DNA of 64,000 bases from Spirochaetia bacterium (GCA_965225855.1 CBDDCK010000005.1:1056001-1120000), one strand, 5' to 3'. Positions 8,886 to 54,562 are shown, counted from the first letter of the stretch. The notes: generated by a model from the letters alone, not told the origin. Numbers and translations: made by a program.

Positions 8886-9985
8886 GTGGCGAGAATATTT
8901 TGGGTAAAACTATTTAAAAAAGCTGCTTTGGCCCATTTGGATTCTACTGTTTTTTCTTATACAAATATTTATTTCCAAACTATTTATGCTCAGAGTGTCC
9001 CTATTTGAAAAAATATACTATTACCAAAATTTATTTTAAGGGCGGAGCAGGATTAAATCGCTATTATATATTTTCTTTTTTAGGGTTTGAAGAAGGTAAT
9101 ACTTTTATCCCAAGTTACCCCAAGCGAGCTAAACCAAAAACTCAAAGATAGTCGCTGGCTTTTGCGTAGCCAATGGTATTGGTATTTTCGGTATTTTCAA
9201 GCAGATTTTGAAACGCGTTAGTATCCTGAAGGCCGAGTAGAAATTTTTGTGCTACTAGAGTCTAGCTCTAAACGTTTCGGTTCTAAGTCCGATGAACATT
9301 CGTTTCTCTGGTTTCACCGGCAGACGCAATCCCTTGCAGTGCATTTCGCTTCCAAGTGGGCAAAATTACCAGGCCTATCTTGGTATTTTCCGCGCATTGA
9401 TAATAGCTTTTTTGGTACAAATATTGTGATAGTGGAAGTCCAAACCCAAAAATTTTTAGAACGTTTCAACTTAGATGAGTTGGGGCTTACGGTATTTTGG
9501 CTGCGTGGTGGTGCCGAAGAATTTATCCAAACAAGCCCAGTGGTTAAGTTGGGCCTTTCCCAAAAATATTGGTTGATTTTGGACTTAGATGGTTTTGGTT
9601 TGATTTTTGATTTTATTATTGGGGCTTTTGTCGATTTAGATGGATTGTATTTATTGAAGAGCCGACTTTGGGCTATGAAATTTGGGTTGCAATTTGATGT
9701 TGGGGTTATTGCTGGTTTATTTTTGTTACAAAGCAAATATAGGCTGTTACTGCGCCCCAGCCCTTGGTTGGAACTCTCTTTATTGAGCAACATTATAAGT
9801 AGCTTAAATATTGGAAGTCTTAACTCTGAAATATCTAGTATAAACTTAGAGGATAATGATGTAGATTTTTATGCCTTAGGCCGTTTTAGAACCACTTCTC
9901 AACTTTCGCAAAACGATTATGACAACCGCACCGAATTTAATGTTGGGTTGGAAGGTAAATTGGGCCTTTCTGCTGGTTTGTTCAA
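8886..9985 (+). pseudogene. Degraded outer-membrane/POTRA-like protein gene, truncated at the CRISPR locus boundary
   Basis: Coding-like segments in shifting frames with stops at 8886-9250 (YTITKIYFKG...FEEG). The ORF 9249..10034 has beta-strand-like alternation and runs into the antisense of the Cas effector 3' end. Confidence 0.45.
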
Positions 9986-12900
9986 TAATTCAAGTTTATC
10001 TTTGAGTTTCTCCGCTTTTTTAGCAACATTGTAAGCAGCGACTTTATCAGGGTCATTGATTTCATCGCTGATTTGTTCTTTATGTATATCTAAAATATTT
10101 TCGGTGTCAAAACCACAAGATTTATCATGTTTGCCACAAATATATTGATGCTTTGTAAACTTTAAATGGTTTTTTTCTTCTTCTCGATAAACCCATTCAT
10201 TTTCACAATAAGGACAGTTATCACTGGTTTGTTTTTCACTGGTAAAAATAATGGCTCCGTATTGATCTATATGTTTTATAATAATATCACTTTTTTTTGA
10301 TTTATACTCTTTATTCTTATCTCCCCAACCTTTATCTTTCTTCAATTGCTCTAATTGCTCTAAAGCAAGTTCCCTTTCTCTTACCTTAAGTTCCCTAATC
10401 TCAATCAAATCCTTAATATGCGGTGGGACAAAGCCTTTGGTTTGAAATTTTTGGAATAAAGCATACTCTAATCGCCGTGAAATATTGATATACAAATCTT
10501 GAAAATGCTTATCAATCATGTCTCTACTCAAGTCTTCTAAGACGATAAACCCGGGATATTTATCTTGTACGGAATATTTATCTTGTAGAAAAGAGATAAC
10601 CCCAATCATATTCGCTACCAAAGCATCTCGAAGATGATTGATTTTATTAGCACTTGGTTTATGCTCACTTCTATCGGTTGCTTGAAGTTCTTGCAAAAAC
10701 TCTTCAAAGCGTTGTTTAATATCTTCTTTGGTATAGGTGTAGTCTTTTAATTCTAAGCCCTCATATTCTTTTTCCCAATAATAAAAAGGTTTACCATCTA
10801 TTTTGAGATGAACGCCTTTATCATCTTCCCAATCGCTTATGCAAGAATTTTCATTGTAGTTTTCAAAAATGATTTTTTTAGCAGCTTCTTTTTTGAGTTT
10901 TAAGTAAGTGAAAACATCACCATTTAAAATGATTTTATCTTTGATCACTTTAGCTTTTGTAAGATCAATGAAGGCAAGATTTTTTTGCTCAAACAAATCA
11001 TCTCTATCTATTCTATCTATGAAATAAGAAAGATTATTAAAAATTCTTCTTTCTTTTATATTATCAAAATTGACCATTTTATGGCTTGGTTTTTCTTTGG
11101 TATTATAAAAATCTTTTCTCAGTTCATAGCATTTGATATCTTGCTCTTCAATTGGAAAAGTTGGTTTTAATATTTCTTGTTTTTCTTTTTTATTTTTATC
11201 ATAAAGATATTTATTGTCTTGATTAAACTTAGCAATGCACAAAGTTGCTAATTCGATATTCCCTCTATCTATGCCATATTTGTAAAAAGTATCCCAGTTT
11301 TGGTTGTTAAAATCTCTATTAAAATCTTTGATTTTCTCTTCTATTTCTTCTGCTTTGGCAAAGGCTAAATCTGTATGTAGGGAGTTTGGATTCAGTGTAA
11401 AAGTAGTAGTAAGAGTGAATTGGTCACGACATTTTCTATTATCTGAATAATTATTAGTTGATAAATAGTTATGCTCTGTATGATCTTTTCTCCTAAAATT
11501 AATTTTCATTTCAGGGTTTAATCTGATTGTATCGTTATTGGTAGTATTCCAAAAATCAAGCCACATTTTAGTATGTCTTCTGTTTTGGCTCTTTGGTGTT
11601 TGGTATTCATTTTGATTTCTTTTTTCTAAGTCATAAGAAGTGATCTTAAAAACGACAATATCAAATTTTTTCATCAAATCATCTCTTGTTTTTTGATTTA
11701 AGCCAAACGCTTTCATTTTATAAAGCGAATTCATCTCTTTTTCAAATGTTTCATTATCTTTTGCATTTAATACTTTGCTCAAATCAAAGTCAGATAAGTC
11801 TAAAATAGACTGTGCATAAGCTGTTTCTAAAATGCCTTGCATAAATTCCAATTCATATTCGGCTTTTGATTTATCACAAGGTTTTTTATTTTTATGATTA
11901 TTTTTTCTATTTTGTAACTCATTCTTATCATTGGTGGCTTCTTTGCTATCAGAATGAATTTTCAATAATTTGTGCAATGCCCTTTTGGTAAGAGTATCCC
12001 GCACATATTCATACATATCTTTAAGCCCCTTAATAAAAGTACTCTCTTCGGCAAAGCATAGTTTGTGCAATGCCCTTTTGGTAAGAGATGAGATAAAATG
12101 TAATTGATAGTCTTCATTAGTTTGTGAGCTGGTTAATTTTTCTAATTCTTTTCTCAACGCTTGCATCTTTTCTTTTGGTATCAGCCATAAGAAATCTTCA
12201 TTTTTATTTTTATTTTTGCCAATTCCTATCCAATATCTATTTTGTTCTGCTTCTAATTGTTGTTTTTCTAAATTTTTACTACTTGCTTTTATCTTGCCAT
12301 ACTGCATAGCAATAGTTTTGTAGCTATCTATAAATTCTACCCAATTTTTAAAATAATCATTAAAAACTTTCTTGTTTTGTTTTCTATCAAACCAAGACCT
12401 TTTAATTAGATAATCTCCTCGTTTTTGTTTGGGGGTTTTCTCTTGATTGCTTTTATCACCTTTGTTTTTGTTTTTATCAATTTGTTTTGTTAATAGGATA
12501 CATTTTTCTATAAAGCCTAAGCCTTTATCTTGAAAAAAGTAATACTTATTTTCCAGATTATCAGTTTGTTTTTGGCAATCTTCAAAGAACTGGCTTTTCA
12601 TTTTAGCTTTCAAATCTTGCATCAAAAATTTTATTTCTTCAATTGTGAAACTAATTTTATTCTCTGGAGATTGTTTAATCAGATTGTATTCATCTAAAAA
12701 ACTTGATTCTTCTTTGGATTTAAAGCAAATTTCTTTATCCTTATTATCTTTCTTAAAAATTGGTATCGTTAAAGTTTTTTTATCTTTATCATAACAAGCT
12801 ATTTTCTCATCTTGTCGATCTTCTAATTTTTTAATCTCACCATCAAAATACTCTTTAGATTTTTTATTCACGGTGTAGTAGTTCATACTACCACCTGCTA

Positions 12901-13525
12901 AACAAATCCCTGCAGTTTGAAAAGGTAAATAATTTTCTTGTAAAGCGAGCCATTCTTTTTCAAGTTCCTTAATCTTTTTATAAAGCCTGTTTATCTCTTC
13001 ACTTTTATGTTTATGATTTAAGTTCTGTAAAAAGTCTCTAATCAAGAATAAATATTTTTTTGAACAAAACTCATTGATTAGAAAAGCAATTTCACTGTTT
13101 CGCTCTTTTTCATTTTGATTTTTTGAAAGTAATTCTTTGATTTTATTTAAAAGTTTTTCTATGATTAAAAGTTCTCCTGATTTATTACCATTATTATTAA
13201 TGAATAATTCAAATAATTTATCTTTTAAATACGATACTTTTTCAACAAAATATTCTTTCTTTTTATGCTGTGCATAAAAGTCATTCTTAAAATAATTTTT
13301 CAAAAAATCTTTCTTTATAATCAAAAGAGAATTTATTTTTATTTTTTTCTCATCTTCATAAAAAAATAATTCTTTTAAAGATTTGAAAAATTTTTCTGTT
13401 TCAATAATCAATTCTTTCTCATTTATCTCTTTTATTTTTGGGAGGCTTAAATCTCCTTGAATCTTTTCTAATTTAAATCGTGTTGATTTTGTGTAAGTAT
13501 ATTTGTATTTGTTAAAGTCTTTCAT
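9917..13525 (-). CDS. cas12a3: Cas12a2-related type V effector, Smithella/Cms1 clade (Cas12a3-like RNA-triggered nuclease)
   Basis: RuvC-I YGIDRGNIELATL, RuvC-II IVLEDL, RuvC-III NDPDKVAAYNVAK and Zn ribbon CPYC...C...CGF. Clade motifs NYYTVNKK, IRLNPE, NLSYF, IDLTKAKVI..IILNGD, VANMIGVI and LEYALFQKFQ..GFVPP resemble SmCms1 as recalled. No Cas12a Nuc domain. Confidence 0.8.
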   Translation of the reverse strand: MKDFNKYKYTYTKSTRFKLEKIQGDLSLPKIKEINEKELIIETEKFFKSLKELFFYEDEKKIKINSLLIIKKDFLKNYFKNDFYAQHKKKEYFVEKVSYLKDKLFELFINNNGNKSGELLIIEKLLNKIKELLSKNQNEKERNSEIAFLINEFCSKKYLFLIRDFLQNLNHKHKSEEINRLYKKIKELEKEWLALQENYLPFQTAGICLAGGSMNYYTVNKKSKEYFDGEIKKLEDRQDEKIACYDKDKKTLTIPIFKKDNKDKEICFKSKEESSFLDEYNLIKQSPENKISFTIEEIKFLMQDLKAKMKSQFFEDCQKQTDNLENKYYFFQDKGLGFIEKCILLTKQIDKNKNKGDKSNQEKTPKQKRGDYLIKRSWFDRKQNKKVFNDYFKNWVEFIDSYKTIAMQYGKIKASSKNLEKQQLEAEQNRYWIGIGKNKNKNEDFLWLIPKEKMQALRKELEKLTSSQTNEDYQLHFISSLTKRALHKLCFAEESTFIKGLKDMYEYVRDTLTKRALHKLLKIHSDSKEATNDKNELQNRKNNHKNKKPCDKSKAEYELEFMQGILETAYAQSILDLSDFDLSKVLNAKDNETFEKEMNSLYKMKAFGLNQKTRDDLMKKFDIVVFKITSYDLEKRNQNEYQTPKSQNRRHTKMWLDFWNTTNNDTIRLNPEMKINFRRKDHTEHNYLSTNNYSDNRKCRDQFTLTTTFTLNPNSLHTDLAFAKAEEIEEKIKDFNRDFNNQNWDTFYKYGIDRGNIELATLCIAKFNQDNKYLYDKNKKEKQEILKPTFPIEEQDIKCYELRKDFYNTKEKPSHKMVNFDNIKERRIFNNLSYFIDRIDRDDLFEQKNLAFIDLTKAKVIKDKIILNGDVFTYLKLKKEAAKKIIFENYNENSCISDWEDDKGVHLKIDGKPFYYWEKEYEGLELKDYTYTKEDIKQRFEEFLQELQATDRSEHKPSANKINHLRDALVANMIGVISFLQDKYSVQDKYPGFIVLEDLSRDMIDKHFQDLYINISRRLEYALFQKFQTKGFVPPHIKDLIEIRELKVRERELALEQLEQLKKDKGWGDKNKEYKSKKSDIIIKHIDQYGAIIFTSEKQTSDNCPYCENEWVYREEEKNHLKFTKHQYICGKHDKSCGFDTENILDIHKEQISDEINDPDKVAAYNVAKKAEKLKDKLELLNKPAERPNLPSNPTLNSVRLS

Positions 13526-13565: not shown

Positions 13566-16500
13566 TCAAGATTTATTTTCAATAGTTAACCACTTATCTT
13601 TTTGCTTTTTCACCAATTCTTCTTGTTGTGCAAAAGATTGCCAATCTGTTTTGAATACATCAATTCTCAATTTACCATCTTCTTTTTTATCTTCTGTGAT
13701 ATTTTGCAAGATGATAATCCCTTTTCTGGCAATATTATATGCACCATTAGCATCAGAATCTTGAGGAAGAAGAGCATCTTTAGAAGCATAATCTTTAAGT
13801 TTTCTACTATCGTAAAAAGGTTCAACAGGAGAAACAATAAAATCACTCTCTGCGTTATGGGTGTAAATTGTGTGAATGACTTTCCCTACATCATTTTTAA
13901 TTTCTTGTTTTTCAGCTTTGCTATTATCCGTTACTCGCATATCTAAAAGGCGATTAAAATGAGCTATAATTTTTGCAAGTAGTTTATTTTCTTTATAGTC
14001 TTCTGCTTTTGATTTTTTACAAATTATTTCTTTAATATCCAAATCTTTTGTAAGTGTAATTTCCTGTTCATTAAAAAGTTTTTTCAATTCTTCATTGGTA
14101 TCTACTAGTTTATGTGTGTTTTTGTCGTAAGTAGAGCGTTCTATACGGCTGTGAATTGTCCAAATTTTATCCAGTTTGGTTTCATCAAATTCTTTTTCGT
14201 CTTCATAATTTCCTGTCTTACCTTTGAAATTTTTCAGGTTATACGAAAACTCAAAATGCTCTCCATTAAAAATGATGCTTTCAAACTTGCCAAAAAATTC
14301 TTGTGCCTGTTCTACATCTTTATATTTAGGATACAACGAACGCATATAGCCCGTAATTGGGTCGGTTTTTGAAGTATAACCAGCCGCGGTATAAAACAAA
14401 ATTCCAGATTGTTTTCCTAATTTTTGAAAACTCTCAAATTTATTAGAAAGTTGTAATGGCTTTAGGTAATGACCTGCCTTGTTTGAGTCTGTTTCTTTTT
14501 TGAATATTAAATAATTTAGTTTATCAATTAGGGCTTTCTCAAATTTTTGGTAAATCTGTTTTTCTACCTTAAATCTTCCTCGTTTAAAACCAGAATTTAA
14601 ATCCTCCAGAACAACAATAGCATTATGTTTTACAATCAATTGACTCAATTGATGCACTACTTGGGAAAGATACCCTGCTTTTAATTCTTTAATGTTTTCA
14701 ATAGTTTCCCAGTTTTCTCTTGCACCTGCGCGTTCTTTTTCTTTGGTGTCAAGTTTTGCATGATAGTCAATTTCTTTGGTAAATTTTGTACCTTCTTTTT
14801 CATATTCATTTTTAATAATATTCCAACTGCCTTGCTCTAAAATATCACCATCTTGATTGATAACCGAGTAATACAGTAAATTTCGCTCACCCCTATCAAT
14901 ACCAATAATCTTGACATCTTTGTTGTCTTTCAAAAATTCATTTACTTCTTGATTTAAGTAACTGCTACCTTGTGCTTTGAAATTACAAGTAATAGGACAA
15001 TGAAATAAAATTTTATCCTCACTATATCTTTTGTCTTTAGTAATTTCTTGATTTTTATTAGTAATAATTTTGCCGATAATCGTATCCTTATATTGTACCA
15101 GCTTATATTTTGTATGTTCACACTCCTTATAAGTAATATTATCTTTGCCCTTCAGGTCATCTTCAATATTTTGTTCAGTTATAGGTAACCCTAACTCTTT
15201 CCATTCTTTAGCATATTGCTTGTGTTTTAGAATAGTACCTACTTTATGGACAAAAAGATTCTTTATATTTATAGATGCTTTTCTAAAAAATAATTCTGCT
15301 TGACCGTTTAATTTATAAACGACATCTTTTAAGTTCTCTTCCTCAAAAAGTGCTTTCCAAAAGATAGTATGAAGATTATCAGTTCCTTTCTTTGTTTTCT
15401 CTTTAGAAAAATCTTTGTTGTATATTTCAAAAAGGTAGAGTTTTTCTTCTCCTACACATTGATCGATATAATTTTCACTGATATTAGTAAAAGATATTTT
15501 ATAAATACAGTGAGATAATTTATTATAAAATTTATCTAAAGATTCATATTCTTTTTCAAATAAGTTCTTGTAATCATATTCAGCTTCTGCTGTGCTAGCA
15601 TAACTTTCTAAAAATGATTTACAAAATTTAATCCAAGTATTCAATGCTTCTTGATACTCTTTTTTGTAACGTGTCATCTCATTTTCAATTTTAGTAATAG
15701 TTTCTTTATGTTCTAAAAATTTATTTAAATCCGTTTTTGATATTGCTGGATTCTCTATTTTTGATTCAGTCTCAAGTTTAAATTTAATCTCATTTTCTCT
15801 TATCTGCAAATATTCTTTTTGAAACTTTTTGGGTCTTGTATCTTCTGATTTTCTAGGCACAAATTCTTTTTTTGATTTATCATATACAGTGTTGTTGAGT
15901 TCAAAAACTTGTTTTGTGATTTCCAAGTTTGATGAAAATTTTCCCTCGCTTGATTCTTTTTCAATAAGAAATGAAGTGTCGTTTTTATCAAAATGCTTTT
16001 TTACTTCTGAACGTTGAGTGGAACACTTAGGAATCATTGTAGTTCCATCTTTAAAAAATTTATAAACTACTTTTTTATATTGCTGACCTTCTTTTTTAAT
16101 AAGTTTCAAGTTGGATAATTCTTTTTCCAAATTCAATAACTTATCGCTCTCTTGTTTATGTCCTTTTGTTCCTTGTTTTTTATTCGCTAATTTCTCCTTT
16201 TGTTTTTGAATCTCTTTACATTTGTTTTCAATAGCTACTTTATTTTCATCATCACCGCTATTTTTAAAGATCGTACTATGCGCTTTATCCATTACAGCCA
16301 GATAATATTTATTATCCTTTAATAATAGGGCACAGGTATTATCAGTTTCTTTATTTTTATCCCACCCATCAGCAAGGGTTGCATTTTCAAAATTGAGTTT
16401 AAATTTTTCTACACTATATGGTTTTTGTGTGAGGTAGTTTCTGACTTGGTCATAGAGTGTGTTTATTTGTGATAAGTTGTCGTAAATTTTATCAAATTCA

Positions 16501-18272
16501 CTATAAAAAGCATTATCTTTTTCAAATAAATTTTGTTTTTTCTCATCGCTCTTTTTGATTTTTACGACCAATGGCTTTAAGAAAAATTGCAATTGTTTGA
16601 TACTGTCTAAATAGTTTTTAATTTTTAAAACATCTTCTTTATTGTTTTTTAATTCTTGCTCTTCATTATTGTATTTTTCTAAAATACAATTAATTTTGGA
16701 ATTTGATTTAATATTTTCTAAAATGTCAATTGTTCGATGATTTTCTTTATCTGTAATTTTAAGACTTTCAAAATATGTAATCAAAGGCTTATTTATAGTT
16801 TTATTTTTGAGCTCATCTGTAATCTCATCACTTTCATAGTTTTTAGTATAAAACTCCAAAGCATTGTGAATCTTTTCAAGAGAAAAATAATCTTTTTTGA
16901 GTTCTTTTTCTCTTTGTTTTTCTGTAAATCTTTTCGGGTTGTTGTTTTTATCTTTGCCTAATAACTCATTTTTAAAATAATACACTAAAGCACTTTTATG
17001 ATATTGCCCAAAAATTTCTTGTGAAATATCGGTAATAGCTTTATCATTTTTGATATAAACTTTGGATAAATCTGCCTGCTCTTTTAATATAGTAAAGATA
17101 TTTTTATCGCAAGTAGATTTTAATCTCTCTGTGATGTTAAAATGTTCTTCCCCATTATAATAAAATAAATTGTCATTTTCAAAAGTAAAGCGTTGTAAAT
17201 CCTCACATAATTCAGCATCTGATTTGATACCCTCTAAACGAAATGAGCTACCTTCTCTATCGCTTAAAATCTGTTTGAAAAGCTCTTGCATTTTGCAGGA
17301 ATAAGTATCTTTTTTCTTTTCTTGCTCTTTTTTATCATTTTCTTCTAAGCCTTTCTTTTGTGACAAAACAGGGAACAAAAGATGCTCAGCTTTTTTATCA
17401 TCTCCCTCTAAGCCTTTCTTTTGTGAGACTAATCGCTGACCTGCTAAATTGATAATCTCGTTGAAGCCTTTGATTTTTGTATTTTTATCAATAGTTTTTC
17501 CACCAATAACTTGGTTATATTTATCAATTCCACTTTGAGTTAAACATTGATTAAAGTATTCTAACTTGAAAACACTGTCTAAACTTTCAATTTTTAAATC
17601 ATCTAAATTTTCTTTTAATTTAGAAAAATCAATATTGAGTTTCTTTGCGTTCTCATAGCATTCTAAATTCTCTAAAAACTTGGGTAAATTTTCGTGAATG
17701 AGTCTATAACCAATCGCCGTAGAGTGTTCTTTTTCTGTGTAAATATTCTTTCTGTTCTCTTCAAAACCTCCAAAGTAAGTTGTCCAGCCTTTGAACTTTG
17801 TGATAATCTCTATTTTATGTTTATGGTCTAAATCTTGACCATTTTGGTATCGCTTTTTTAACCACGAGATAAGGATACTTTCAATAAACTCTTTTCCAAA
17901 TGGCTCTTTATCAGTTTTAAAAATTTCACCTTTGGCATTGGAAAGTTTTTTGCGTAATTGACCTTGTATTGATTCTAAACTCTTTTGAAGTGTTTTATTT
18001 TTCTTATCGCTTTTAAGTTTTGAATAGATCTCTTTAAAATTTTTTAATTCTTTAACATCAAAAGCAAAATTTTTCAAACCCTCATTGATAAACCATTTAT
18101 GATATTCATCAATGATTTTTTTGGCTTCTTTATAGTCTTTTGCTCGTTGCTCATCTTTGCTAATGAGACCTTTATTGTTGATATGCTCAAGTGTTTTTCC
18201 AATAGGTTTTAACTCAAATCGTAGGGTTTTATCTACAGAATATTTATTTGTAAATTTTTCAAACATCTCCAT
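13566..18272 (-). CDS. cas12a: Type V-A CRISPR effector Cas12a (Cpf1), enlarged by insertions
   Basis: FTNKYSVDKTLRFELKP, GWDKNKE, MIPKCSTQ, YKLNGQAELF, IIGIDRGERNL, VVLEDLN, DSDANGAYNIARKG; RuvC D-E-D triad intact. Confidence 0.97.
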   Translation of the reverse strand: MEMFEKFTNKYSVDKTLRFELKPIGKTLEHINNKGLISKDEQRAKDYKEAKKIIDEYHKWFINEGLKNFAFDVKELKNFKEIYSKLKSDKKNKTLQKSLESIQGQLRKKLSNAKGEIFKTDKEPFGKEFIESILISWLKKRYQNGQDLDHKHKIEIITKFKGWTTYFGGFEENRKNIYTEKEHSTAIGYRLIHENLPKFLENLECYENAKKLNIDFSKLKENLDDLKIESLDSVFKLEYFNQCLTQSGIDKYNQVIGGKTIDKNTKIKGFNEIINLAGQRLVSQKKGLEGDDKKAEHLLFPVLSQKKGLEENDKKEQEKKKDTYSCKMQELFKQILSDREGSSFRLEGIKSDAELCEDLQRFTFENDNLFYYNGEEHFNITERLKSTCDKNIFTILKEQADLSKVYIKNDKAITDISQEIFGQYHKSALVYYFKNELLGKDKNNNPKRFTEKQREKELKKDYFSLEKIHNALEFYTKNYESDEITDELKNKTINKPLITYFESLKITDKENHRTIDILENIKSNSKINCILEKYNNEEQELKNNKEDVLKIKNYLDSIKQLQFFLKPLVVKIKKSDEKKQNLFEKDNAFYSEFDKIYDNLSQINTLYDQVRNYLTQKPYSVEKFKLNFENATLADGWDKNKETDNTCALLLKDNKYYLAVMDKAHSTIFKNSGDDENKVAIENKCKEIQKQKEKLANKKQGTKGHKQESDKLLNLEKELSNLKLIKKEGQQYKKVVYKFFKDGTTMIPKCSTQRSEVKKHFDKNDTSFLIEKESSEGKFSSNLEITKQVFELNNTVYDKSKKEFVPRKSEDTRPKKFQKEYLQIRENEIKFKLETESKIENPAISKTDLNKFLEHKETITKIENEMTRYKKEYQEALNTWIKFCKSFLESYASTAEAEYDYKNLFEKEYESLDKFYNKLSHCIYKISFTNISENYIDQCVGEEKLYLFEIYNKDFSKEKTKKGTDNLHTIFWKALFEEENLKDVVYKLNGQAELFFRKASINIKNLFVHKVGTILKHKQYAKEWKELGLPITEQNIEDDLKGKDNITYKECEHTKYKLVQYKDTIIGKIITNKNQEITKDKRYSEDKILFHCPITCNFKAQGSSYLNQEVNEFLKDNKDVKIIGIDRGERNLLYYSVINQDGDILEQGSWNIIKNEYEKEGTKFTKEIDYHAKLDTKEKERAGARENWETIENIKELKAGYLSQVVHQLSQLIVKHNAIVVLEDLNSGFKRGRFKVEKQIYQKFEKALIDKLNYLIFKKETDSNKAGHYLKPLQLSNKFESFQKLGKQSGILFYTAAGYTSKTDPITGYMRSLYPKYKDVEQAQEFFGKFESIIFNGEHFEFSYNLKNFKGKTGNYEDEKEFDETKLDKIWTIHSRIERSTYDKNTHKLVDTNEELKKLFNEQEITLTKDLDIKEIICKKSKAEDYKENKLLAKIIAHFNRLLDMRVTDNSKAEKQEIKNDVGKVIHTIYTHNAESDFIVSPVEPFYDSRKLKDYASKDALLPQDSDANGAYNIARKGIIILQNITEDKKEDGKLRIDVFKTDWQSFAQQEELVKKQKDKWLTIENKS

Positions 18273-18339: not shown

Positions 18340-21300
18340 ATCTACAACAGTAGAAATTAAATAGTGTCCTTAGACTCTTCTTCTCTGCTGTATATTTTTT
18401 TGTAAAATCTACAACAGTAGAAATTAAATAGTGTCCTTAGACCAAACCACCCAAACATTCAACCCTTCAATCTACAACAGTAGAAATTAAATAGTGTCCT
18501 TAGACTTACTCAACATCCTAGTCTGCTACAATCTACAACAGTAGAAATTAAATAGTGTCCTTAGACTCTTCTTCTCTGCTGTATATTTTTTTGTAAAATC
18601 TACAACAGTAGAAATTAAATAGTGTCCTTAGACCAAACCACCCAAACATTCAACCCTTCAATCTACAACAGTAGAAATTAAATAGTGTCCTTAGACTTAC
18701 TCAACATCCTAGTCTGCTACAATCTACAACAGTAGAAATTAAATAGTGTCCTTAGACTCTTCTTCTCTGCTGTATATTTTTTTGTAAAATCTACAACAGT
18801 AGAAATTAAATAGTGTCCTTAGACCAACGAAGCCCTAGCCGAAGCCAACGATCTACAACAGTAGAAATTAAATAGTGTCCTTAGACTATGATATGGACAG
18901 AAGAAGATGATGATATCTACAACAGTAGAAATTAAATAGTGTCCTTAGACGAATAACAACGGCGAGATCGCCGTAATCTACAACAGTAGAAATTAAATAG
19001 TGTCCTTAGACGAAAATAGCTAAGGGAATAGCTATAGAGATCTACAACAGTAGAAATTAAATAGTGTCCTTAGACAGCCCTATGGTGATTGCTACAGGCC
19101 TATCTACAACAGTAGAAATTAAATAGTGTCCTTAGACAGCCCTATGGTGATTGCTACAGGCCTATCTACAACAGTAGAAATTAAATAGTGTCCTTAGACA
19201 AAATAGCAAACGATGCCGTGGTCGCAATCTACAACAGTAGAAATTAAATAGTGTCCTTAGACACGTTAATTTGCCCGATTATTGTAAAAATCTACAACAG
19301 TAGAAATTAAATAGTGTCCTTAGACACCGTATAATGCAATTGCATGATTGATTATCTACAACAGTAGAAATTAAATAGTGTCCTTAGACACCGTATAATG
19401 CAATTGCATGATTGATTATCTACAACAGTAGAAATTAAATAGTGTCCTTAGACCATATTGCCACTCAAAAACAATTTTAACTATCTACAACAGTAGAAAT
19501 TAAATAGTGTCCTTAGACAGTCTATTGTTCGTCTGTCTTGGAGGGAATCTACAACAGTAGAAATTAAATAGTGTCCTTAGACCACTCCTCCAGCACACAC
19601 ACTCCTCCAGATCTACAACAGTAGAAATTAAATAGTGTCCTTAGACGGATTCATAGTCAGCCTCAAAATGGGATCTACAACAGTAGAAATTAAATAGTGT
19701 CCTTAGACAATGAAATCTTCCCATTGATCCCATAAATCTACAACAGTAGAAATTAAATAGTGTCCTTAGACGCCAACAGCAATAAAATAGCAATGTTCAT
19801 CTACAACAGTAGAAATTAAATAGTGTCCTTAGACCCTGTGTATCTTGGTGAAGATTATTCATCTACAACAGTAGAAATTAAATAGTGTCCTTAGACGCGT
19901 TTTATCCGTGTAGGAATCTACAATCTACAACAGTAGAAATTAAATAGTGTCCTTAGACAACTCATCCCAGCGACCCTGATAGCCATCTACAACAGTAGAA
20001 ATTAAATAGTGTCCTTAGACAATACTCATTATAAATAAGGTTATACGCTATCTACAACAGTAGAAATTAAATAGTGTCCTTAGACTGTATCTGTATAGAC
20101 AATCTAAGGTCAATCTACAACAGTAGAAATTAAATAGTGTCCTTAGACTCTATATTCATCCCAACGTCCTTGATAACATCTACAACAGTAGAAATTAAAT
20201 AGTGTCCTTAGACATGTCAATTACCATAATCCCTTTAGTATCTACAACAGTAGAAATTAAATAGTGTCCTTAGACCAAATGCAGTGCTCTTTTTTTTTTA
20301 ATCTACAACAGTAGAAATTAAATAGTGTCCTTAGACTCTGGATGAACACATACGAACTAGTTATCTACAACAGTAGAAATTAAATAGTGTCCTTAGACAC
20401 TGTTGCACAAGGCCTCCCAATTTTATCTACAACAGTAGAAATTAAATAGTGTCCTTAGACATGTCTAATGAAATAAAACAATACAATATCTACAACAGTA
20501 GAAATTAAATAGTGTCCTTAGACCGGTTGTATAGCTTTGCATTGGGCAGCCATCTACAACAGTAGAAATTAAATAGTGTCCTTAGACCCCTAAGCATAAG
20601 AGCACTATTCAATACTATCTACAACAGTAGAAATTAAATAGTGTCCTTAGACTTACGCCATTACATTGGGCCGCGCGCAAATCTACAACAGTAGAAATTA
20701 AATAGTGTCCTTAGACATTATCTTAATATATCCAAGGGGCTATAATCTACAACAGTAGAAATTAAATAGTGTCCTTAGACACAGCCCCATCTAGGAAATC
20801 CATTTAATCTACAACAGTAGAAATTAAATAGTGTCCTTAGACAACAGATTCAAAAATCCCTTTTTATCTATCTACAACAGTAGAAATTAAATAGTGTCCT
20901 TAGACATCGGGCACGCCGTTTATTACCAATTATCTACAACAGTAGAAATTAAATAGTGTCCTTAGACGGAAAATGAATAAGTTTGCTTGTACTTAATCTA
21001 CAACAGTAGAAATTAAATAGTGTCCTTAGACGGAAAATGAATAAGTTTGCTTGTACTTAATCTACAACAGTAGAAATTAAATAGTGTCCTTAGACATGGC
21101 AGGCGCAGAAGGAGACGCCCGTATCTACAACAGTAGAAATTAAATAGTGTCCTTAGACATTTTTATCCTATACCCGCAGCAGTAACAATCTACAACAGTA
21201 GAAATTAAATAGTGTCCTTAGACCTTCAATCTGTTCTTCCATATACCACCTATCTACAACAGTAGAAATTAAATAGTGTCCTTAGACTGTCGTGATATTT

Positions 21301-24300
21301 ACTACCAGATACCATCTACAACAGTAGAAATTAAATAGTGTCCTTAGACACAACATTTATTCTATAAATACAACCTAATCTACAACAGTAGAAATTAAAT
21401 AGTGTCCTTAGACAAATACAGCCGATAATATGAATATATAATCTACAACAGTAGAAATTAAATAGTGTCCTTAGACGAGATATCGTTGTTGCCACGAGAA
21501 CGATCTACAACAGTAGAAATTAAATAGTGTCCTTAGACAATTCGGTTACTGGAAACTTGGACACATCTACAACAGTAGAAATTAAATAGTGTCCTTAGAC
21601 CGTAAAACTGGAAACTTAGAAATTCAGGACATCTACAACAGTAGAAATTAAATAGTGTCCTTAGACAGAACAAGAATTAAACCTAGTGCGCAATCTACAA
21701 CAGTAGAAATTAAATAGTGTCCTTAGACCAATAGTGAACAATTCAAGCCACCTATTATCTACAACAGTAGAAATTAAATAGTGTCCTTAGACTTTACAAG
21801 TTTGCAAGCAGCACCACAAATCTACAACAGTAGAAATTAAATAGTGTCCTTAGACCCCACGATAGGGTAAAATAGCTACCAATCTACAACAGTAGAAATT
21901 AAATAGTGTCCTTAGACATTGATGTTGTAAGATAGAACTATTGCCATATCTACAACAGTAGAAATTAAATAGTGTCCTTAGACTTTAAAAGAAAACAATT
22001 GAATTGATCCTATCTACAACAGTAGAAATTAAATAGTGTCCTTAGACAATGTTTAGTTTGTCAATTTCGTTGTGATCTACAACAGTAGAAATTAAATAGT
22101 GTCCTTAGACCTTTTGATAAGGCCGAGGTGGCCCTATATCTACAACAGTAGAAATTAAATAGTGTCCTTAGACCATAAAATCGGGGGCTTAAAACCAATA
22201 ATCTACAACAGTAGAAATTAAATAGTGTCCTTAGACCTTCATATGCTGCGCAGTGCAAGGGTGATCTACAACAGTAGAAATTAAATAGTGTCCTTAGACC
22301 TTCATATGCTGCGCAGTGCAAGGGTGATCTACAACAGTAGAAATTAAATAGTGTCCTTAGACCTTCATATGCTGCGCAGTGCAAGGGTGATCTACAACAG
22401 TAGAAATTAAATAGTGTCCTTAGACCTGCTAATAGCAGCTGGGGCCGATCCATCTACAACAGTAGAAATTAAATAGTGTCCTTAGACCTGCTAATAGCAG
22501 CTGGGGCCGATCCATCTACAACAGTAGAAATTAAATAGTGTCCTTAGACCCCTTGCACTGGGCAGCCGATGAAGAATCTACAACAGTAGAAATTAAATAG
22601 TGTCCTTAGACCTTAGCCTCATATGGAGGCCATAAAATCTACAACAGTAGAAATTAAATAGTGTCCTTAGACATAAAATCGGGGACTTAAAACCAATAAT
22701 CTACAACAGTAGAAATTAAATAGTGTCCTTAGACACATCCTTGCTAAAGCTACTGACCATAAATCTACAACAGTAGAAATTAAATAGTGTCCTTAGACCA
22801 TGAATGGTATGTTTTATAATTGTTAATCTACAACAGTAGAAATTAAATAGTGTCCTTAGACTTTTGTTGCTGTTAATCCTGACTCCTATCTACAACAGTA
22901 GAAATTAAATAGTGTCCTTAGACCTTGGCCTTTACATCGGCCAATTACATCTACAACAGTAGAAATTAAATAGTGTCCTTAGACAAAATATACAGGTTTA
23001 TATCGTATCCATCTACAACAGTAGAAATTAAATAGTGTCCTTAGACCTTGGCCTTTACATCGGCCAATTACATCTACAACAGTAGAAATTAAATAGTGTC
23101 CTTAGACGACGCAATATCCTGCATCTAGCAGCGAATCTACAACAGTAGAAATTAAATAGTGTCCTTAGACAGGGCTAAAGGTGTGGCCGAAGCTAAATCT
23201 ACAACAGTAGAAATTAAATAGTGTCCTTAGACCAACGCCAATCCCTAGCAATCCACCCACATCTACAACAGTAGAAATTAAATAGTGTCCTTAGACTACA
23301 AAGGAATAGAATACGCTTCGTATCTACAACAGTAGAAATTAAATAGTGTCCTTAGACGCCATAACTAAAAGAAAAAAAGTACAAATCTACAACAGTAGAA
23401 ATTAAATAGTGTCCTTAGACCAAATCATTTTTAACTTTAACCTCCATATCTACAACAGTAGAAATTAAATAGTGTCCTTAGACGTACGGTCAATAAACAA
23501 ACCCCTAATTGATCTACAACAGTAGAAATTAAATAGTGTCCTTAGACCAGCAAACCAGCACCGAGCGTAATAAAAATCTACAACAGTAGAAATTAAATAG
23601 TGTCCTTAGACTCCACAACAGTTTTTTCTTCCACTTCGGATCTACAACAGTAGAAATTAAATAGTGTCCTTAGACTTATGAAAAATATAAAGGAAAGCTT
23701 GAAAATCTACAACAGTAGAAATTAAATAGTGTCCTTAGACCCTATAAGGGTATGCTACCGTGTAATAAATCTACAACAGTAGAAATTAAATAGTGTCCTT
23801 AGACCTTGCTAAGGCAGTCTGCAACCCCCGTATCTACAACAGTAGAAATTAAATAGTGTCCTTAGACCAAATATGGTAACATAAATAATATCTGATCTAC
23901 AACAGTAGAAATTAAATAGTGTCCTTAGACTTAGCAGAAGATCAAGAATTGCGTGAAATCTACAACAGTAGAAATTAAATAGTGTCCTTAGACTTCTGTT
24001 CAGCGTAGGGTTACTGATCTATCTACAACAGTAGAAATTAAATAGTGTCCTTAGACCTTGTTTATAACTCATTCCTATTTCGTTATCTACAACAGTAGAA
24101 ATTAAATAGTGTCCTTAGACCGTTGGTGGCTAAGTCTAGCCGTTTTAATCTACAACAGTAGAAATTAAATAGTGTCCTTAGACCACTGTTGCAAAGTGCC
24201 TCCCAATTTTATCTACAACAGTAGAAATTAAATAGTGTCCTTAGACAGTTTATCGTAAGGTTTTCTTATTTTATATCTACAACAGTAGAAATTAAATAGT

Positions 24301-27300
24301 GTCCTTAGACAGCAGCAGGATCGCGGATTATTTAAATCATCTACAACAGTAGAAATTAAATAGTGTCCTTAGACTTATCTATAGCCTTATCCAAAGATAC
24401 AATCTACAACAGTAGAAATTAAATAGTGTCCTTAGACAGGCAAACCATATCTTTTACCTATATCATCTACAACAGTAGAAATTAAATAGTGTCCTTAGAC
24501 AGCACCAATTAACGCTCCAATACCTGCATCTACAACAGTAGAAATTAAATAGTGTCCTTAGACAAAACAAAATGATGATTTTAACTTTGAATCTACAACA
24601 GTAGAAATTAAATAGTGTCCTTAGACTTTGCATCCTTCAAAATCAAGGTCTCATCTACAACAGTAGAAATTAAATAGTGTCCTTAGACGTTGGATCGCCT
24701 AAATATTGGGCTGCATCTACAACAGTAGAAATTAAATAGTGTCCTTAGACTTTGCATCCTTCAAAATCAAGGTCTCATCTACAACAGTAGAAATTAAATA
24801 GTGTCCTTAGACGTTGGATCGCCTAAATATTGGGCTGCATCTACAACAGTAGAAATTAAATAGTGTCCTTAGACGATGCAATAACAGAAGCCAAAGCATT
24901 ATCTACAACAGTAGAAATTAAATAGTGTCCTTAGACGTGGCAGATTTTATGAAGTTCTTACAATCTACAACAGTAGAAATTAAATAGTGTCCTTAGACCT
25001 ACTATGATACACCAACAACCGAAACAATCTACAACAGTAGAAATTAAATAGTGTCCTTAGACCCCAATTCACCAGCAAAACACAAACATCTACAACAGTA
25101 GAAATTAAATAGTGTCCTTAGACGCCCATGATCTTTTATTGATTAAGAATAATCTACAACAGTAGAAATTAAATAGTGTCCTTAGACTATAAGCATAAGC
25201 AGCAGACGCTGCCAATCTACAACAGTAGAAATTAAATAGTGTCCTTAGACTTCTGGGGAACCAGTAATCCAATTTGTATCTACAACAGTAGAAATTAAAT
25301 AGTGTCCTTAGACGCACCTTAGTAAAACCACGTTTGTTGTTATCTACAACAGTAGAAATTAAATAGTGTCCTTAGACTAAAAAAGACTGTACACCTTTGC
25401 ACTATCTACAACAGTAGAAATTAAATAGTGTCCTTAGACTTTATTCCTCCTTCTTGTTTCGCATCAATCTACAACAGTAGAAATTAAATAGTGTCCTTAG
25501 ACTTGCACGCAACAAAAACAGGGCAAAGCTATCTACAACAGTAGAAATTAAATAGTGTCCTTAGACATTTACAGCGATAAAGTAAAGTTACATGATCTAC
25601 AACAGTAGAAATTAAATAGTGTCCTTAGACAACAAAGTGAAACAAGCCATAAAAAAGTATCTACAACAGTAGAAATTAAATAGTGTCCTTAGACATGGAT
25701 GATATTATTCTTCTTTCTATATCTACAACAGTAGAAATTAAATAGTGTCCTTAGACATGGATGATATTATTCTTCTTTCTATATCTACAACAGTAGAAAT
25801 TAAATAGTGTCCTTAGACGTGCTTATATCAACGGCGCAGATTATATCTACAACAGTAGAAATTAAATAGTGTCCTTAGACTCGAAAGCGCACGAAAAAGC
25901 CAAGAAATCTACAACAGTAGAAATTAAATAGTGTCCTTAGACACGCTCTACAGGTTATCAATGCTTTTGAATCTACAACAGTAGAAATTAAATAGTGTCC
26001 TTAGACTACCTCACTATAAAACCACGGAATACATCTACAACAGTAGAAATTAAATAGTGTCCTTAGACATTTACAGCGATAAAGTAAAGTTACATGATCT
26101 ACAACAGTAGAAATTAAATAGTGTCCTTAGACACGCTCTACAGGTTATCAATGCTTTTGAATCTACAACAGTAGAAATTAAATAGTGTCCTTAGACCTGC
26201 AAAATCCCATAATTTAGATCATAATCTACAACAGTAGAAATTAAATAGTGTCCTTAGACAGTCGAGAAATCCGGTTTCAGACTGATCTACAACAGTAGAA
26301 ATTAAATAGTGTCCTTAGACTTAATCTAAATAACCAAAAGAAACCGAATCTACAACAGTAGAAATTAAATAGTGTCCTTAGACGTACCTATTAGTACAAA
26401 TACTTATATAATCTACAACAGTAGAAATTAAATAGTGTCCTTAGACTTTTGTTATTTTTTATTTAAGTTTTAAATCTACAACAGTAGAAATTAAATAGTG
26501 TCCTTAGACCTTTGCTATTTCTTCGCCTTGAGGTTGAATCTACAACAGTAGAAATTAAATAGTGTCCTTAGACTTTAACTGTAGAAGAAATAATAGAAGA
26601 AATCTACAACAGTAGAAATTAAATAGTGTCCTTAGACGAACAAATTAAAAAAGTTTTTAAGGAATCTACAACAGTAGAAATTAAATAGTGTCCTTAGACT
26701 TCCCACTTAGTAAAAAAACAAGTAAATCTACAACAGTAGAAATTAAATAGTGTCCTTAGACCGTCTGATCCTTTAATTGATGCATTTTATCTACAACAGT
26801 AGAAATTAAATAGTGTCCTTAGACTTTTCTTTATCAAGATTAAATAAATCGATCTACAACAGTAGAAATTAAATAGTGTCCTTAGACAAGCTAAGCACGC
26901 ACAGCTCAATAAACATCTACAACAGTAGAAATTAAATAGTGTCCTTAGACTTTACCATATAAACCTAGCGATGTCATAATCTACAACAGTAGAAATTAAA
27001 TAGTGTCCTTAGACAAACATTGTTCCAAGGCCAAAGCCAAATCTACAACAGTAGAAATTAAATAGTGTCCTTAGACAAACTTGGTATTGATTCCGGTCTT
27101 TTATCTACAACAGTAGAAATTAAATAGTGTCCTTAGACGATTTGCGGATTGGCGAAAAAGGCTTTATCTACAACAGTAGAAATTAAATAGTGTCCTTAGA
27201 CTTTGTGGGTCTGGTGTAGAAATTAATTATCTACAACAGTAGAAATTAAATAGTGTCCTTAGACGTCGAGGCAGCTGGGTACCTTATCGAATCTACAACA

Positions 27301-30300
27301 GTAGAAATTAAATAGTGTCCTTAGACCACTTAAATATAAAGTGGCCCGCAGAATCTACAACAGTAGAAATTAAATAGTGTCCTTAGACGCCAAAAACCTA
27401 CCTTACATAGCAAAAATCTACAACAGTAGAAATTAAATAGTGTCCTTAGACCGCAATAGCCGTATTTTTTTATGATGCATCTACAACAGTAGAAATTAAA
27501 TAGTGTCCTTAGACATGGGTTTGTTCGTTGTGGGGTTTTTCATCTACAACAGTAGAAATTAAATAGTGTCCTTAGACAAATCTCTTGGTGTTAGTCATTC
27601 CAAATCTACAACAGTAGAAATTAAATAGTGTCCTTAGACAAACAACAGATTTAACACCACAAGAAATCTACAACAGTAGAAATTAAATAGTGTCCTTAGA
27701 CAAAAGCAGCAGAAATCTCTGTAGAAAATCTACAACAGTAGAAATTAAATAGTGTCCTTAGACTTGTGCGCCTGTTTCGCTGGGATTTGATCTACAACAG
27801 TAGAAATTAAATAGTGTCCTTAGACCCAAAACAGCAGCGTGGAGCGTTGCTGATCTACAACAGTAGAAATTAAATAGTGTCCTTAGACCAAGTTAAGAAA
27901 TTATTGATGCAAGGAATCTACAACAGTAGAAATTAAATAGTGTCCTTAGACTTAATCAGTCTAGTTGAAAAATCTATATCTACAACAGTAGAAATTAAAT
28001 AGTGTCCTTAGACTTAATCAGTCTAGTTGAAAAATCTATATCTACAACAGTAGAAATTAAATAGTGTCCTTAGACCGCTAATTGCCCTGTAAGCTGGGCG
28101 TTGATCTACAACAGTAGAAATTAAATAGTGTCCTTAGACAGTTTATGTTAAATCTGCCGATAATTATCTACAACAGTAGAAATTAAATAGTGTCCTTAGA
28201 CCCGTTTATTAATTCTTTATCAGAAGATATCTACAACAGTAGAAATTAAATAGTGTCCTTAGACCCGTTTATTAATTCTTTATCAGAAGATATCTACAAC
28301 AGTAGAAATTAAATAGTGTCCTTAGACAGTTTATGTTAAATCTGCCGATAATTATCTACAACAGTAGAAATTAAATAGTGTCCTTAGACAAAACAGGGAA
28401 AAGCTGAAACCCCTAATCTACAACAGTAGAAATTAAATAGTGTCCTTAGACATTGACGCCTTTAGTTTCAAAATCCTATCTACAACAGTAGAAATTAAAT
28501 AGTGTCCTTAGACAAACTATGAAAGAAATCCACTTTTAATCTACAACAGTAGAAATTAAATAGTGTCCTTAGACAGTGGTTTAAAGTTTGCATTTGAACG
28601 ATCTACAACAGTAGAAATTAAATAGTGTCCTTAGACCGAAACAAGACTGAAACAAAAACTGAAAATCTACAACAGTAGAAATTAAATAGTGTCCTTAGAC
28701 CGCAGCAACCAATAGATTGGTCGCACAATCTACAACAGTAGAAATTAAATAGTGTCCTTAGACCACTTGGCAAAAACACCAAGAGCATTAATCTACAACA
28801 GTAGAAATTAAATAGTGTCCTTAGACCTTGATGGCAATAATGCTGAGCGACAGCATCTACAACAGTAGAAATTAAATAGTGTCCTTAGACCTTGATGGCA
28901 ATAATGCTGAGCGACAGCATCTACAACAGTAGAAATTAAATAGTGTCCTTAGACCAACCTTGTGGTCAAGATCGATCATGTATCTACAACAGTAGAAATT
29001 AAATAGTGTCCTTAGACGCGTAAAATTTCATCTGATCAGACTTAATCTACAACAGTAGAAATTAAATAGTGTCCTTAGACTTATTTTCGTTTAGCAAAAA
29101 AAAGGAATCTACAACAGTAGAAATTAAATAGTGTCCTTAGACCTTTGCCTGAAGCCCAAGAACATTTTATCTACAACAGTAGAAATTAAATAGTGTCCTT
29201 AGACTTCGTATTTTACGGCAATCATAGTAAGATCTACAACAGTAGAAATTAAATAGTGTCCTTAGACTTCTAAGATCATTAGGTTTGAGCACAAATCTAC
29301 AACAGTAGAAATTAAATAGTGTCCTTAGACAAAAAAAAGGGAAGCACCGCCTCCCAATCTACAACAGTAGAAATTAAATAGTGTCCTTAGACTGCTGGGT
29401 CTCGCTATACAGAGTTCCTATCTACAACAGTAGAAATTAAATAGTGTCCTTAGACTATAAAGGATATAAAGAATAGATATAAATCTACAACAGTAGAAAT
29501 TAAATAGTGTCCTTAGACTATAAAGGATATAAAGAATAGATATAAATCTACAACAGTAGAAATTAAATAGTGTCCTTAGACTATAAAGGATATAAAGAAT
29601 AGATATAAATCTACAACAGTAGAAATTAAATAGTGTCCTTAGACAGAGCTTTTGTCAATTGAATTATCAAATCTACAACAGTAGAAATTAAATAGTGTCC
29701 TTAGACATTTTCAAGCCCGATATGGCTTAGAATCTACAACAGTAGAAATTAAATAGTGTCCTTAGACATAGTTGGTACCACAAATAAAGCAATATCTACA
29801 ACAGTAGAAATTAAATAGTGTCCTTAGACCGAGACGCCCTTGCACAGGGCAGAGCGCAACGGCATCTACAACAGTAGAAATTAAATAGTGTCCTTAGACT
29901 TACAAAGGGAAAATACAAAAAACAGAAATCTACAACAGTAGAAATTAAATAGTGTCCTTAGACAGAGAAAGATGGGAGTCTGACAAACTAAATCTACAAC
30001 AGTAGAAATTAAATAGTGTCCTTAGACTCCAGCTGCTAGAGGCAGCTGGGGCTTAATCTACAACAGTAGAAATTAAATAGTGTCCTTAGACCACTGTGCT
30101 GCCCATAAAGGTTATACTATCTACAACAGTAGAAATTAAATAGTGTCCTTAGACTTCCTTGTTTACTCGTTATACAGATTATATCTACAACAGTAGAAAT
30201 TAAATAGTGTCCTTAGACCTACAATGCAAGCATTGTAATCGGTATGATCTACAACAGTAGAAATTAAATAGTGTCCTTAGACCTACAATGCAAGCATTGT

Positions 30301-38704: not shown

Positions 38705-38962
38705 TTATCGATTTTTACTATCGTAGCGGTCGATTTTTCCGCATAGCCCATATTTTTCAGAATACGCAAAAATAGACTGGAACATCGATTTTGCTGTGCT
38801 GTATTTTTGCTTATCAATATTTATGTGAGCAGCCAGTCCTCTGCGCTGGGGCTCTTCATGATAGAAGTAGGTTGAGGTCTGTCCGTACAGTTGGTGAAAA
38901 TAGAGCGACCTAGGGCAAAACATAAAATCATTTAGATATGAAATGGGAATATAACTTTCCAA
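38705..38962 (-). pseudogene. cas4: Truncated type V-A Cas4 (N-terminal 85 aa)
   Basis: MESYIPISYLNDFMFCPRSLYFHQLY...GKID. It stops before the nuclease E-x-K motif and the C-terminal cysteines, 20 bp from the first repeat. Confidence 0.85.
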
Positions 38963-39059
38963 AATAAAATTACCTTAGAATTTTTTAAAAAATATACTGT
39001 GAAACTATTTTAGAAAAGCAACCAACCTGCGCTAAATTATCAAAGAACTTTTTATGTAC

Positions 39060-52830: not shown

Positions 52831-53242
52831 TGGATTGAGCCCAAGCCCTACAGGAAATGTCCCATAACTAAGCGGGCAAGCAGCCCCAATAAACTAGCTA
52901 TTTTATAAATGCAGCCTTGGTATTTTGAGAATACCAAGGCTGCAAATTTTTTTATTAACTTGCTAAAAAAATTTATTAAGGCTGTAAAATTTTTTAGCAA
53001 GGCTGCATTTACTGGGTAGCAATGGGGTAGCTGGAAAATTCAATAAAGGTTTGGCCAATTCCCATAAGAAAATTGGCTAATGCCAAGGCTTGGCTGCCAA
53101 TATATAGCCTAGGTAATTGCTTTTTTACAATAAAGGTTTGGCCCAGTGGCTAGTATGCCACAACCTTAGATAAATTTGGTAGAGGCATTATAAAAGAGAT
53201 AGATTTTTTATTTTTAGATACTTGGCTATAATTCGGGATTTT

Positions 53243-53614
53243 TTATATTTTTTTCACTAAATCATCAACTTGTACACCATCAAACGAAATAGCATTTTCC
53301 TCAATATTTCGATTACCATAAACATCATAAGGATAAATAGACAACAAAGATTTTAAATTTTTATGATTATCTTTTCGTATCTTAAACCCAAAACTTTCAA
53401 GAGTGGCGATTTTATCCTGAATATGATAAGGCCTTGCCATACCTTTTTTTATTTCTAAAGTACCTAAGTCTTCATTTGTATCAGGGTCAATAATTCTTTC
53501 GCCTTCGTCAAAAATTAAAAATCTATCGGAAGATTCTATACCTTGCTTAGAGCCAGCATTGATAACCACTCTTCTACCATTATCTAGCACTTTCAGGACT
53601 TTAAAACATTCCAT
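53243..53614 (-). CDS. Hypothetical protein, FlgT C-terminal-like beta-barrel
   Basis: VVINAGSKQGI...IIDPDTNEDLG motif; low GC. Confidence 0.6.
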   Translation of the reverse strand: MECFKVLKVLDNGRRVVINAGSKQGIESSDRFLIFDEGERIIDPDTNEDLGTLEIKKGMARPYHIQDKIATLESFGFKIRKDNHKNLKSLLSIYPYDVYGNRNIEENAISFDGVQVDDLVKKI

Positions 53615-53616
53615 AC

Positions 53617-54174: not shown

Positions 54175-54562
54175 TAATGTAATTTTTCTATTAAGAGCGA
54201 GAACTATGCAACATAGCCTTGCATTTAGTCAATTTTCTATTTAGCTTTGCTCCCTTTCAGCCTTGGTATTTTGAAAATGCCAAGGCTGGAAATTTTTTTA
54301 TTAAGGCTACAATAAAATTTATTAAGGCTGTAAAATTTTTTATCAAGTTGGCTTTTTCTGGGTTGCAATGGGGTAGCTGGAAAATTCAATAAGTGTTTTA
54401 CCCTGTTCCTAGCTTGCAACAACTGTTCACAAAATTTTCACAAGCTAGTTATAAAATCTATTATAAAGTATCTAAACAAGGGTTTGCTTACTTGTATCTA
54501 AGGTTTTAATCCTTTAAAATGGGCTAGCGCACATAGCGTAATACAACAAATAGGAGTTCTAT

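Follow-up and report, generated by a model that had tools for sequence, protein, structure and literature searches.

Five spacers in a CRISPR array of a Spirochaetia bacterium read, in reverse complement, as motifs of VP1, the major capsid protein of the microviruses, and raise the question of whether a spirochaete lineage was infected by these ssDNA phages and, if so, by which of them. We consider it probable that the five record a burst of infection in which this spirochaete lineage met two or more related microviruses, members of the Sukshmavirinae radiation.

Five spacers of a type V-A array carry VP1 motifs

The array is of type V-A and occupies positions 18340..38684 of the window, the whole 64,000-nucleotide stretch of DNA analyzed here, with its crRNA on the minus strand. 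It comprises 323 identical 36-nt repeats, whose 3′ end is the Cas12a hairpin handle, and 322 spacers (286 distinct), mostly 26–28 nt in length, and it adjoins cas12a. Within it, the five stretches correspond to spacers S22 and S26 to S29, all on the minus strand and all in the sense of VP1. S22 (19709..19735) reads LWDQWEDFI, a peptide that P0117 holds exactly, and S26 (19959..19984) reads GYQGRWDE, held exactly by the prophage VP1 P0001. S27 (20021..20049) reads AYNLIYNEY and is matched exactly over 24 nt by the VP1 of MH572299; S28 (20086..20112), the weakest of the five, reads DLRLSIQI; and S29 (20149..20177) reads YQGRWDEYR and lies 3 mismatches from the integrated microvirus of genome G095, described below. 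The peptides given in the initial annotation hold for S22, S26 and S27, but the last Gln that it assigned to S28 and the first Gly that it assigned to S29 each correspond to only two bases of a codon. S26 and S29 overlap at one site, where 6 of 25 bases differ, so that at least two virus variants are recorded, which bears out the earlier proposal of two or more related microviruses.

Three other spacers, S21, S275 and S276 (19647-19672, 35660-35685 and 35722-35746), match the host's own genome exactly, at sites without TTTV. The S21 self-match lies close to C1:55069, among protein-coding genes whose products look TldD/PmbA-like, and S276, together with spacer T129 of the genome's type II-C array, matches a repeat family of dozens of copies. 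Elsewhere in the window (51724-57673) there are paralogous pairs of 368-aa and coiled-coil ORFs, whose family matches are weak or absent. An Rfam search gave no match.

The resemblance to VP1 exceeds chance

Because peptides of 8–10 residues might resemble VP1 by chance, we compared 455 distinct spacers (285 from the V-A array and 170 from the II-C array) with shuffled controls; the 54-nt spacer S244 (33685-33738), which consists of S240 joined directly to another sequence, with no repeat in between, was dropped. When scored ungapped with BLOSUM62 against 129 VP1 proteins, S22, S29, S26 and S27 reached 58, 57, 51 and 50, and the maximum of 1365 shuffles was 40; nine of the 455 spacers, these four among them, scored 42 or more, as did 0 of the 1365 shuffles. 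S28, with a score of 32, is borderline in this test, at about the 99th percentile of the null, and to that extent speaks for chance. In a second test, against profiles of VP1, VP2, VP4, VP3-like and VP5-like proteins, all five spacers (21.0–33.5 bits, with S28 at 21.0) lie above the highest of 3452 shuffles (20.7 bits), which upholds the initial identification of the five as microvirus VP1 motifs, in a test that is not fully independent since the source clade of the profiles was partly picked by spacer fit. At the DNA level, 6 of the 455 spacers and 0 of 910 shuffles come within 4 mismatches of a set of 90 microvirus sequences (403 kb), and S22, S27 and S29 are each 3 mismatches from the closest of these.

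The matches are also clustered, with five of the nine microvirus matches of the V-A array falling within 8 consecutive spacers (P = 5e-5). When all spacer sets from this genome and its relatives are pooled, some of the relatives' arrays being sampled in part, 56 of 863 spacers pass a profile threshold set at the 99.9th percentile of the null, where about 0.9 would be expected. Chance resemblance is thus refuted by the BLOSUM62, DNA-level and profile tests, and we regard its probability as negligible.

Protospacers and PAM

Searches of IMG/VR, which the initial annotation had proposed as a check, and of a metagenome returned microvirus VP1 sequences but no exact target. Across INPHARED, the IMG/VR pattern searches and the scan of one metagenome, no protospacer is exact and the best matches have 2–3 mismatches. 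The closest DNA match to S22 is L376, at 2 mismatches. In IMG/VR the S22 pattern has 10 matches, all encoding VP1 and none exact; the S26/S29 pattern has one (L007), again not exact; and the S28 pattern has none. The metagenome holds 21 matches to the S26/S29 pattern, of which 18 are not VP1 and three are, none of them exact, and a search of IMG/VR with the prophage VP1 likewise gave no exact protospacer. As neither an exact protospacer nor a genome of a targeted virus was found, the evidence on PAM, gene order and virus identity is indirect.

For the PAM we scored, spacer by spacer, whether the best 40 homologues could encode TTTV at the edge of the spacer, a measure of homologue context and not of exact targets. 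TTTV is encodable for S26 and S29 in 38 of 40 homologues each, and for S264, S90 and S176, three further microvirus spacers, in 13, 12 and 11 (backgrounds for these five, 1–8%). S22 reaches 11 of 40, against a background of 13%, and S28 reaches 5, whereas S27 and S280 stay at 0 of 40. Among spacers of G402, a genome of the same genus, L350.63, which has the same start register as S29, reaches 40 of 40, and five others reach 0–4 of 38–40. The earlier suggestion that a Phe codon before GYQ would supply a TTTV PAM therefore fits the edges of S26 and S29 but is not general, the signal being weak for S22 and S28 and absent for S27. On this homologue context, a T-rich PAM is probable for the V-A spacers.

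Microvirus spacers recur in this genome and its genus

The signal is wider than first claimed, the initial annotation having overlooked four antisense V-A spacers, 18 spacers of the II-C array and a Cas12a3-like partner of Cas12a. The four V-A spacers, all on the minus strand, are S90 (23994..24020), antisense to the VP2 motif SVQRRVTD and found by profile; S176 (29393..29419), antisense to VP1 at AGSRYTEF and found by BLOSUM62 and profile; S264 (34972..34999), antisense to VP2 at SIQRRVAD, which is the site of S90 in another variant; and S280 (35971..35998), antisense to VP1 at SEVLQTSG, the last two being matched by both DNA and profile. At the profile threshold, microvirus proteins are matched by 9 of 285 V-A spacers and 18 of 170 II-C spacers. 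The II-C array (L242; G000:C5 662644-675944) is a separate locus with 202 repeats, 30-nt spacers and intact cas1 and cas2, and the spacers spread along it point to the same virus group. With the array oriented by its repeat start, 17 of its 18 microvirus spacers are antisense to viral genes (p = 1.4e-4). We considered and rejected the idea that Cas9 spacers are biased to antisense in general, the corresponding count in the same-genus genome G401 being 11 of 18 (p = 0.48).

The two relatives of the same genus carry such spacers too, in 3/19, 12/57 and 6/86 spacers of the G401 sets and 6/129 and 1/7 of the G402 sets, or 28 of 298 together. There are thus 55 microvirus spacers in three genomes of one genus, drawn from three or more CRISPR repeat types, and none of the V-A spacers is common to this genome and G402. 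The matches cover VP1, VP2, VP4 and the VP5-like gene, and since they make up as much as about a fifth of an array's spacers (12/57 in G401), microviruses appear to be a major predator in the genus. Beyond it, one of 19 spacers of G308, a member of another family, matches a microvirus Rep motif (L352 spacer 8, 20.6 bits), and at the profile threshold there are no microvirus matches in G403 (0/54), G145 (0/23) or G404 (0/14). A spacer-motif scan of 401 genomes of the phylum found matches only in this genome, in G095 and, as a single candidate, in G301.

These recurrences bear on the possibility that the spacers derive from microvirus DNA whose entry into the cell led to no productive infection. 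No prophage or isolate links the virus to this genus, as such entry would lead one to expect, but the same sites were taken up repeatedly from different variants (S26/S29, S90/S264, T7/T133 and T156/T193), and sense guides with PAM-compatible edges would imply a double-stranded intermediate. We therefore judge non-productive entry highly unlikely and retain infection as the preferred explanation.

The targets are likely Sukshmavirinae

Using reference labels from Kirchberger 2022 Table S1, we built an IQ-TREE phylogeny of 31 rows, leaving out two near-duplicate references and 38 unlabelled rows. A single clade with 100/100 support holds 21 rows, among them all eight Sukshmavirinae references, the three spirochaete-associated VP1s and the best-fitting capsids, apart from Gokushovirinae, and FastTree on 71 rows gave the same split between the Sukshmavirinae clade and Gokushovirinae. 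Over the 43 residues of the five peptides, P0016 and L255 agree at 37 each and the G095 prophage at 36, and six Gokushovirinae references agree at 17–30; inside the clade, the fit is poor for the G181 prophage (18/43) and for MG945859 (14/43), whose predicted host is Brachyspira.

Taken singly, the motifs point in more than one direction, and the spacers might instead target several microvirus subfamilies, Gokushovirinae or a side clade, rather than Sukshmavirinae specifically. Nine of the 10 matches to the S22 pattern fall closest to a side clade that is not part of the Sukshmavirinae group; S27 finds its best DNA match in a Gokushovirinae A genome; and L007, which carries the S29 peptide exactly, groups with Gokushovirinae. 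The joint fit, however, places capsids of the Sukshmavirinae clade first and the Gokushovirinae references low, in a sum whose II-C peptides were picked against the clade, and the motif has its Q-G-R form throughout the Sukshmavirinae clade but in none of the six Gokushovirinae references. We find a mixture of subfamilies unlikely. As single motifs are not diagnostic of lineage, we call the targets likely Sukshmavirinae, the true target being placed by motif fit.

Integrated microviruses and the host

Members of the VP1 family PF02305 occur in 3 of 401 genomes of the phylum, in 2 of the 35 of G095's order and in 2 of the 10 of G095's genus. In two of these genomes, G095 and G181, which belong to one other spirochaete genus (one is labelled Brevinema), whole microvirus elements sit among host genes (L233 4943-9975 and L234 5363-10346, respectively), with the gene set VP1, ORF, VP2 and VP4 and with 18-bp and 29-bp terminal direct repeats at their ends. 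Similar sites are present in two of three non-lysogen genomes of G095's genus; the repeats are putatively dif-like. The G095 VP1 holds the S26 and S27 peptides exactly. In the third genome, G249, the virus again has VP1, ORF, VP2 and VP4 and makes up a whole 5.7-kb contig, for which reason its binning is unproven. All three elements have the extra ORF after VP1 that is a Sukshmavirinae trait (PMC5759034).

The present genome and its five nearest relatives gave no VP1 prophage, and 14 controls were silent too, though the same family search did give matches when run over the phylum; nor was a clear dif-like site found in the present genome. It has three FlaA hits and belongs to the same phylum as the genome with the Brevinema-labelled protein, which makes the host a spirochaete, as first proposed. 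With a housekeeping gene as query, the best hits were 36–43% identical and came mostly from Alphaproteobacteria.

The cas genes and the origin of the array

The cas12a gene (13566..18272, minus strand) encodes a protein of 1568 aa that matches TIGR04330 at 1025.6 bits and has three RuvC motifs, at residues 1119, 1216 and 1503. The protein is 1330 aa in G402 and 1302 aa in G145. The next gene (9917..13525, minus strand) encodes a 1202-aa Cas12a3-like protein, a predicted RNA-sensing nuclease, whose two PDB matches are both Cas12a3 (E 8e-53 and 1e-52) and in which the RuvC motifs and zinc ribbon are present. It is 32% identical to the product of the gene after cas12a in G402, where the pair of cas12a and cas12a3-like genes is thus conserved. 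About 60 unaligned residues lie between aligned blocks in its insertion region, versus 140 in the solved Cas12a3, and no auxiliary gene was found adjoining the gene.

The V-A locus lacks its own cas4-cas1-cas2 module. A truncated type V cas4 (38708..38974, minus strand; TIGR04328, 86.7 bits over model positions 1-79 of 178) sits immediately ahead of the first repeat, abutting the array at its 5′ end, and cas1 and cas2 are missing; no V-A cas1 was found in the genome, which is 94% complete, its sole cas1 being that of the II-C locus. In G402 the order is cas12a, cas12a3-like, cas4, cas1, cas2 and array, unlike the arrangement here, in which the array lies upstream of cas12a. Filling of the V-A array by the II-C Cas1-Cas2 was rejected on spacer length, mostly 26–28 nt in the former versus 30 nt in the II-C array. 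It would appear that the V-A array has lost the means to add spacers by itself.

The rearranged locus, with its lost cas1 and cas2, and the ability of CRISPR arrays to pass between species would suit a V-A cassette that arrived ready-loaded from a non-spirochaete donor, in which case the spacers would be real but silent on this host. Such an origin leaves out of account the 18 microvirus spacers of the unlinked II-C array on the same chromosome and the 28 more in the G401 and G402 arrays, with at least three repeat types among them, and it sits poorly with the occurrence of the same cas12a and cas12a3-like pair in G402 and of prophages of the clade in spirochaete chromosomes. We consider it very unlikely and favor acquisition within the spirochaete lineage.

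In the favored scenario, a V-A Cas4-Cas1-Cas2 module, deleted here and intact in G402, would have acquired the spacers out of the double-stranded replicative form, in most cases next to a T-rich PAM. The five-spacer cluster lies 294–301 spacers from the leader-side end, with orientation set by the G402 order, and would therefore be old. The annotated microvirus genes all lie on one strand, and the gene-sense strand of a microvirus is the packaged strand. The five guides would accordingly share their sense with the VP1 mRNA and the packaged strand and pair with the minus strand only, so that protection would need Cas12a to cut the double-stranded replicative form. The trigger of Cas12a3 is a complementary RNA (Dmytrenko et al. 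2026, PMC12851939), and the five sense guides should thus be unable to trigger the adjacent Cas12a3-like nuclease, which the antisense spacers S90, S176, S264 and S280 could trigger. The array that the two share is a natural setting in which to see how guide strand might split the work between a DNA-cutting Cas12a and a predicted RNA-sensing Cas12a3-like protein against an ssDNA phage.

Solitary Cas12a repeat handles in phages

Among the 15 INPHARED matches to the V-A repeat, three are microviruses with an intergenic solitary handle (L001 2204-2225, L002 3004-3024 and L236 2275-2294), which are candidate RNA anti-CRISPRs. One of the three, MK496734 of the Sukshmavirinae, has a 22-nt exact match to the 3′ end of the repeat between genes, in a unit that places the handle inside an 11-bp stem followed by a terminator-like hairpin (z -4.84). 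The handle also occurs in three Leptospira phage records. In the II-C array, spacers T66/67 and T200 (L242 4666-4695 and 13514-13543) carry the Cas12a handle with flanks that differ from the host repeat, and the best match of T66 among 50,697 phage records is the MK496734 unit (E 0.004); T66 and T200 are nevertheless not assignable to microviruses, since this 24-nt pattern also occurs, without mismatch, in three larger contigs of IMG/VR. Such handles are common in larger phages, with at least 120 loci, of which 40 have short flanks only and none among the matches listed matched VP1. We rejected the idea that the repeat mimic characterizes the whole clade, since it is present in one of 10 Sukshmavirinae references, 0 of 74 IMG/VR loci and neither of the two prophages.

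With regard to host range by itself, we lean toward the view that Sukshmavirinae are the ssDNA phages of spirochaetes across the phylum. The fuller proposal, in which these phylum-wide phages include temperate members at a dif-like site and some that turn a Cas12a repeat-mimic RNA anti-CRISPR against the Cas12a/Cas12a3 pair, we hold to be doubtful. If true, it would mean that the pressure on hosts is enough that some Sukshmavirinae carry a Cas12a repeat mimic (MK496734, with an echo in T66/67 and T200).

Comparison with known viruses and systems

The proposal of the subfamily goes back to termite guts (PMC5759034), and in the available text of Kirchberger 2022 (PMC9239249) it is described from assembled genomes only. 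The main text of that survey treats spirochaete links as error-prone, resting on single contigs in fragmented MAGs, while its Table S4 records "CRISPR predicts Spirochaetes" for Sukshmavirinae and its Table S1 lists eight Brachyspira predictions and two Family 9 links to Treponema (PMC9239249). One Sukshmavirinae genome in Table S1 (PMC9239249) sits in an Enterococcus MAG, which counts against the reading favored here. For lemur microviruses, iPHoP is reported to predict Treponema hosts (PMC11281440), and the part consulted of a salmon catalogue lists 56 Brevinema prophage sequences whose representatives are Caudoviricetes, Imitervirales or unclassified (PMC12341145). The link that the initial annotation called rarely documented is therefore partly on record, through the Brachyspira and Treponema predictions, but it is one that the main survey doubts. 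In a search of the openly accessible literature, we found no paper that describes microvirus prophages of Brevinema or mimics of Cas12a repeats in microviruses. The 55 spacers, together with two integrated prophages in another genus, make the assignment of these viruses to spirochaete hosts much firmer, and the G095 and G181 prophages offer a concrete route to a first Sukshmavirinae isolate.

Several known systems invite comparison. Like the RNA anti-CRISPRs RacrVA1-3 (PMC10651486), MK496734 has a solitary repeat unit in a mobile element, although it is a candidate only; its carrier differs in being an ssDNA microvirus, and ssDNA is not mentioned in the accessible text of that paper (PMC10651486). 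The Cas12a3-like protein shares RuvC motifs and a zinc ribbon with the published Cas12a3 locus, as far as the latter is described in the text available (PMC12851939), but here a shorter stretch replaces the tRNA-loading insertion, the locus has lost its acquisition genes and its array is placed upstream of cas12a. A short, putatively dif-like site is duplicated at the ends of the G095 and G181 prophages, which invites comparison with the dif-integrating Enterogokushovirus EC6098 (NC_048874, "dif-motif" feature); they differ from it in belonging to the Sukshmavirinae clade and having a spirochaete host.

A methodological precedent is the study of Legionella pneumophila and Gokushovirinae (bioRxiv 10.1101/2021.03.08.434514), in which, as here, a host link was drawn without an isolate from recurrent spacers against VP1, VP2 and VP4, numbering 35 in the portion of the study available. 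That work concerns another phylum and subfamily, and its top targets combine a canonical PAM with no more than 5 mismatches, whereas the PAM here is inferred. The closest counterpart in virus and host is the Sukshmavirinae link of Kirchberger 2022 (PMC9239249), which involves the same capsid clade, the same host phylum and the same spacer type of evidence. As far as the accessible tables show, that link is an automatic prediction for eight genomes and one genus, whereas the present one concerns a different lineage and draws on 55 spacers in three genomes.
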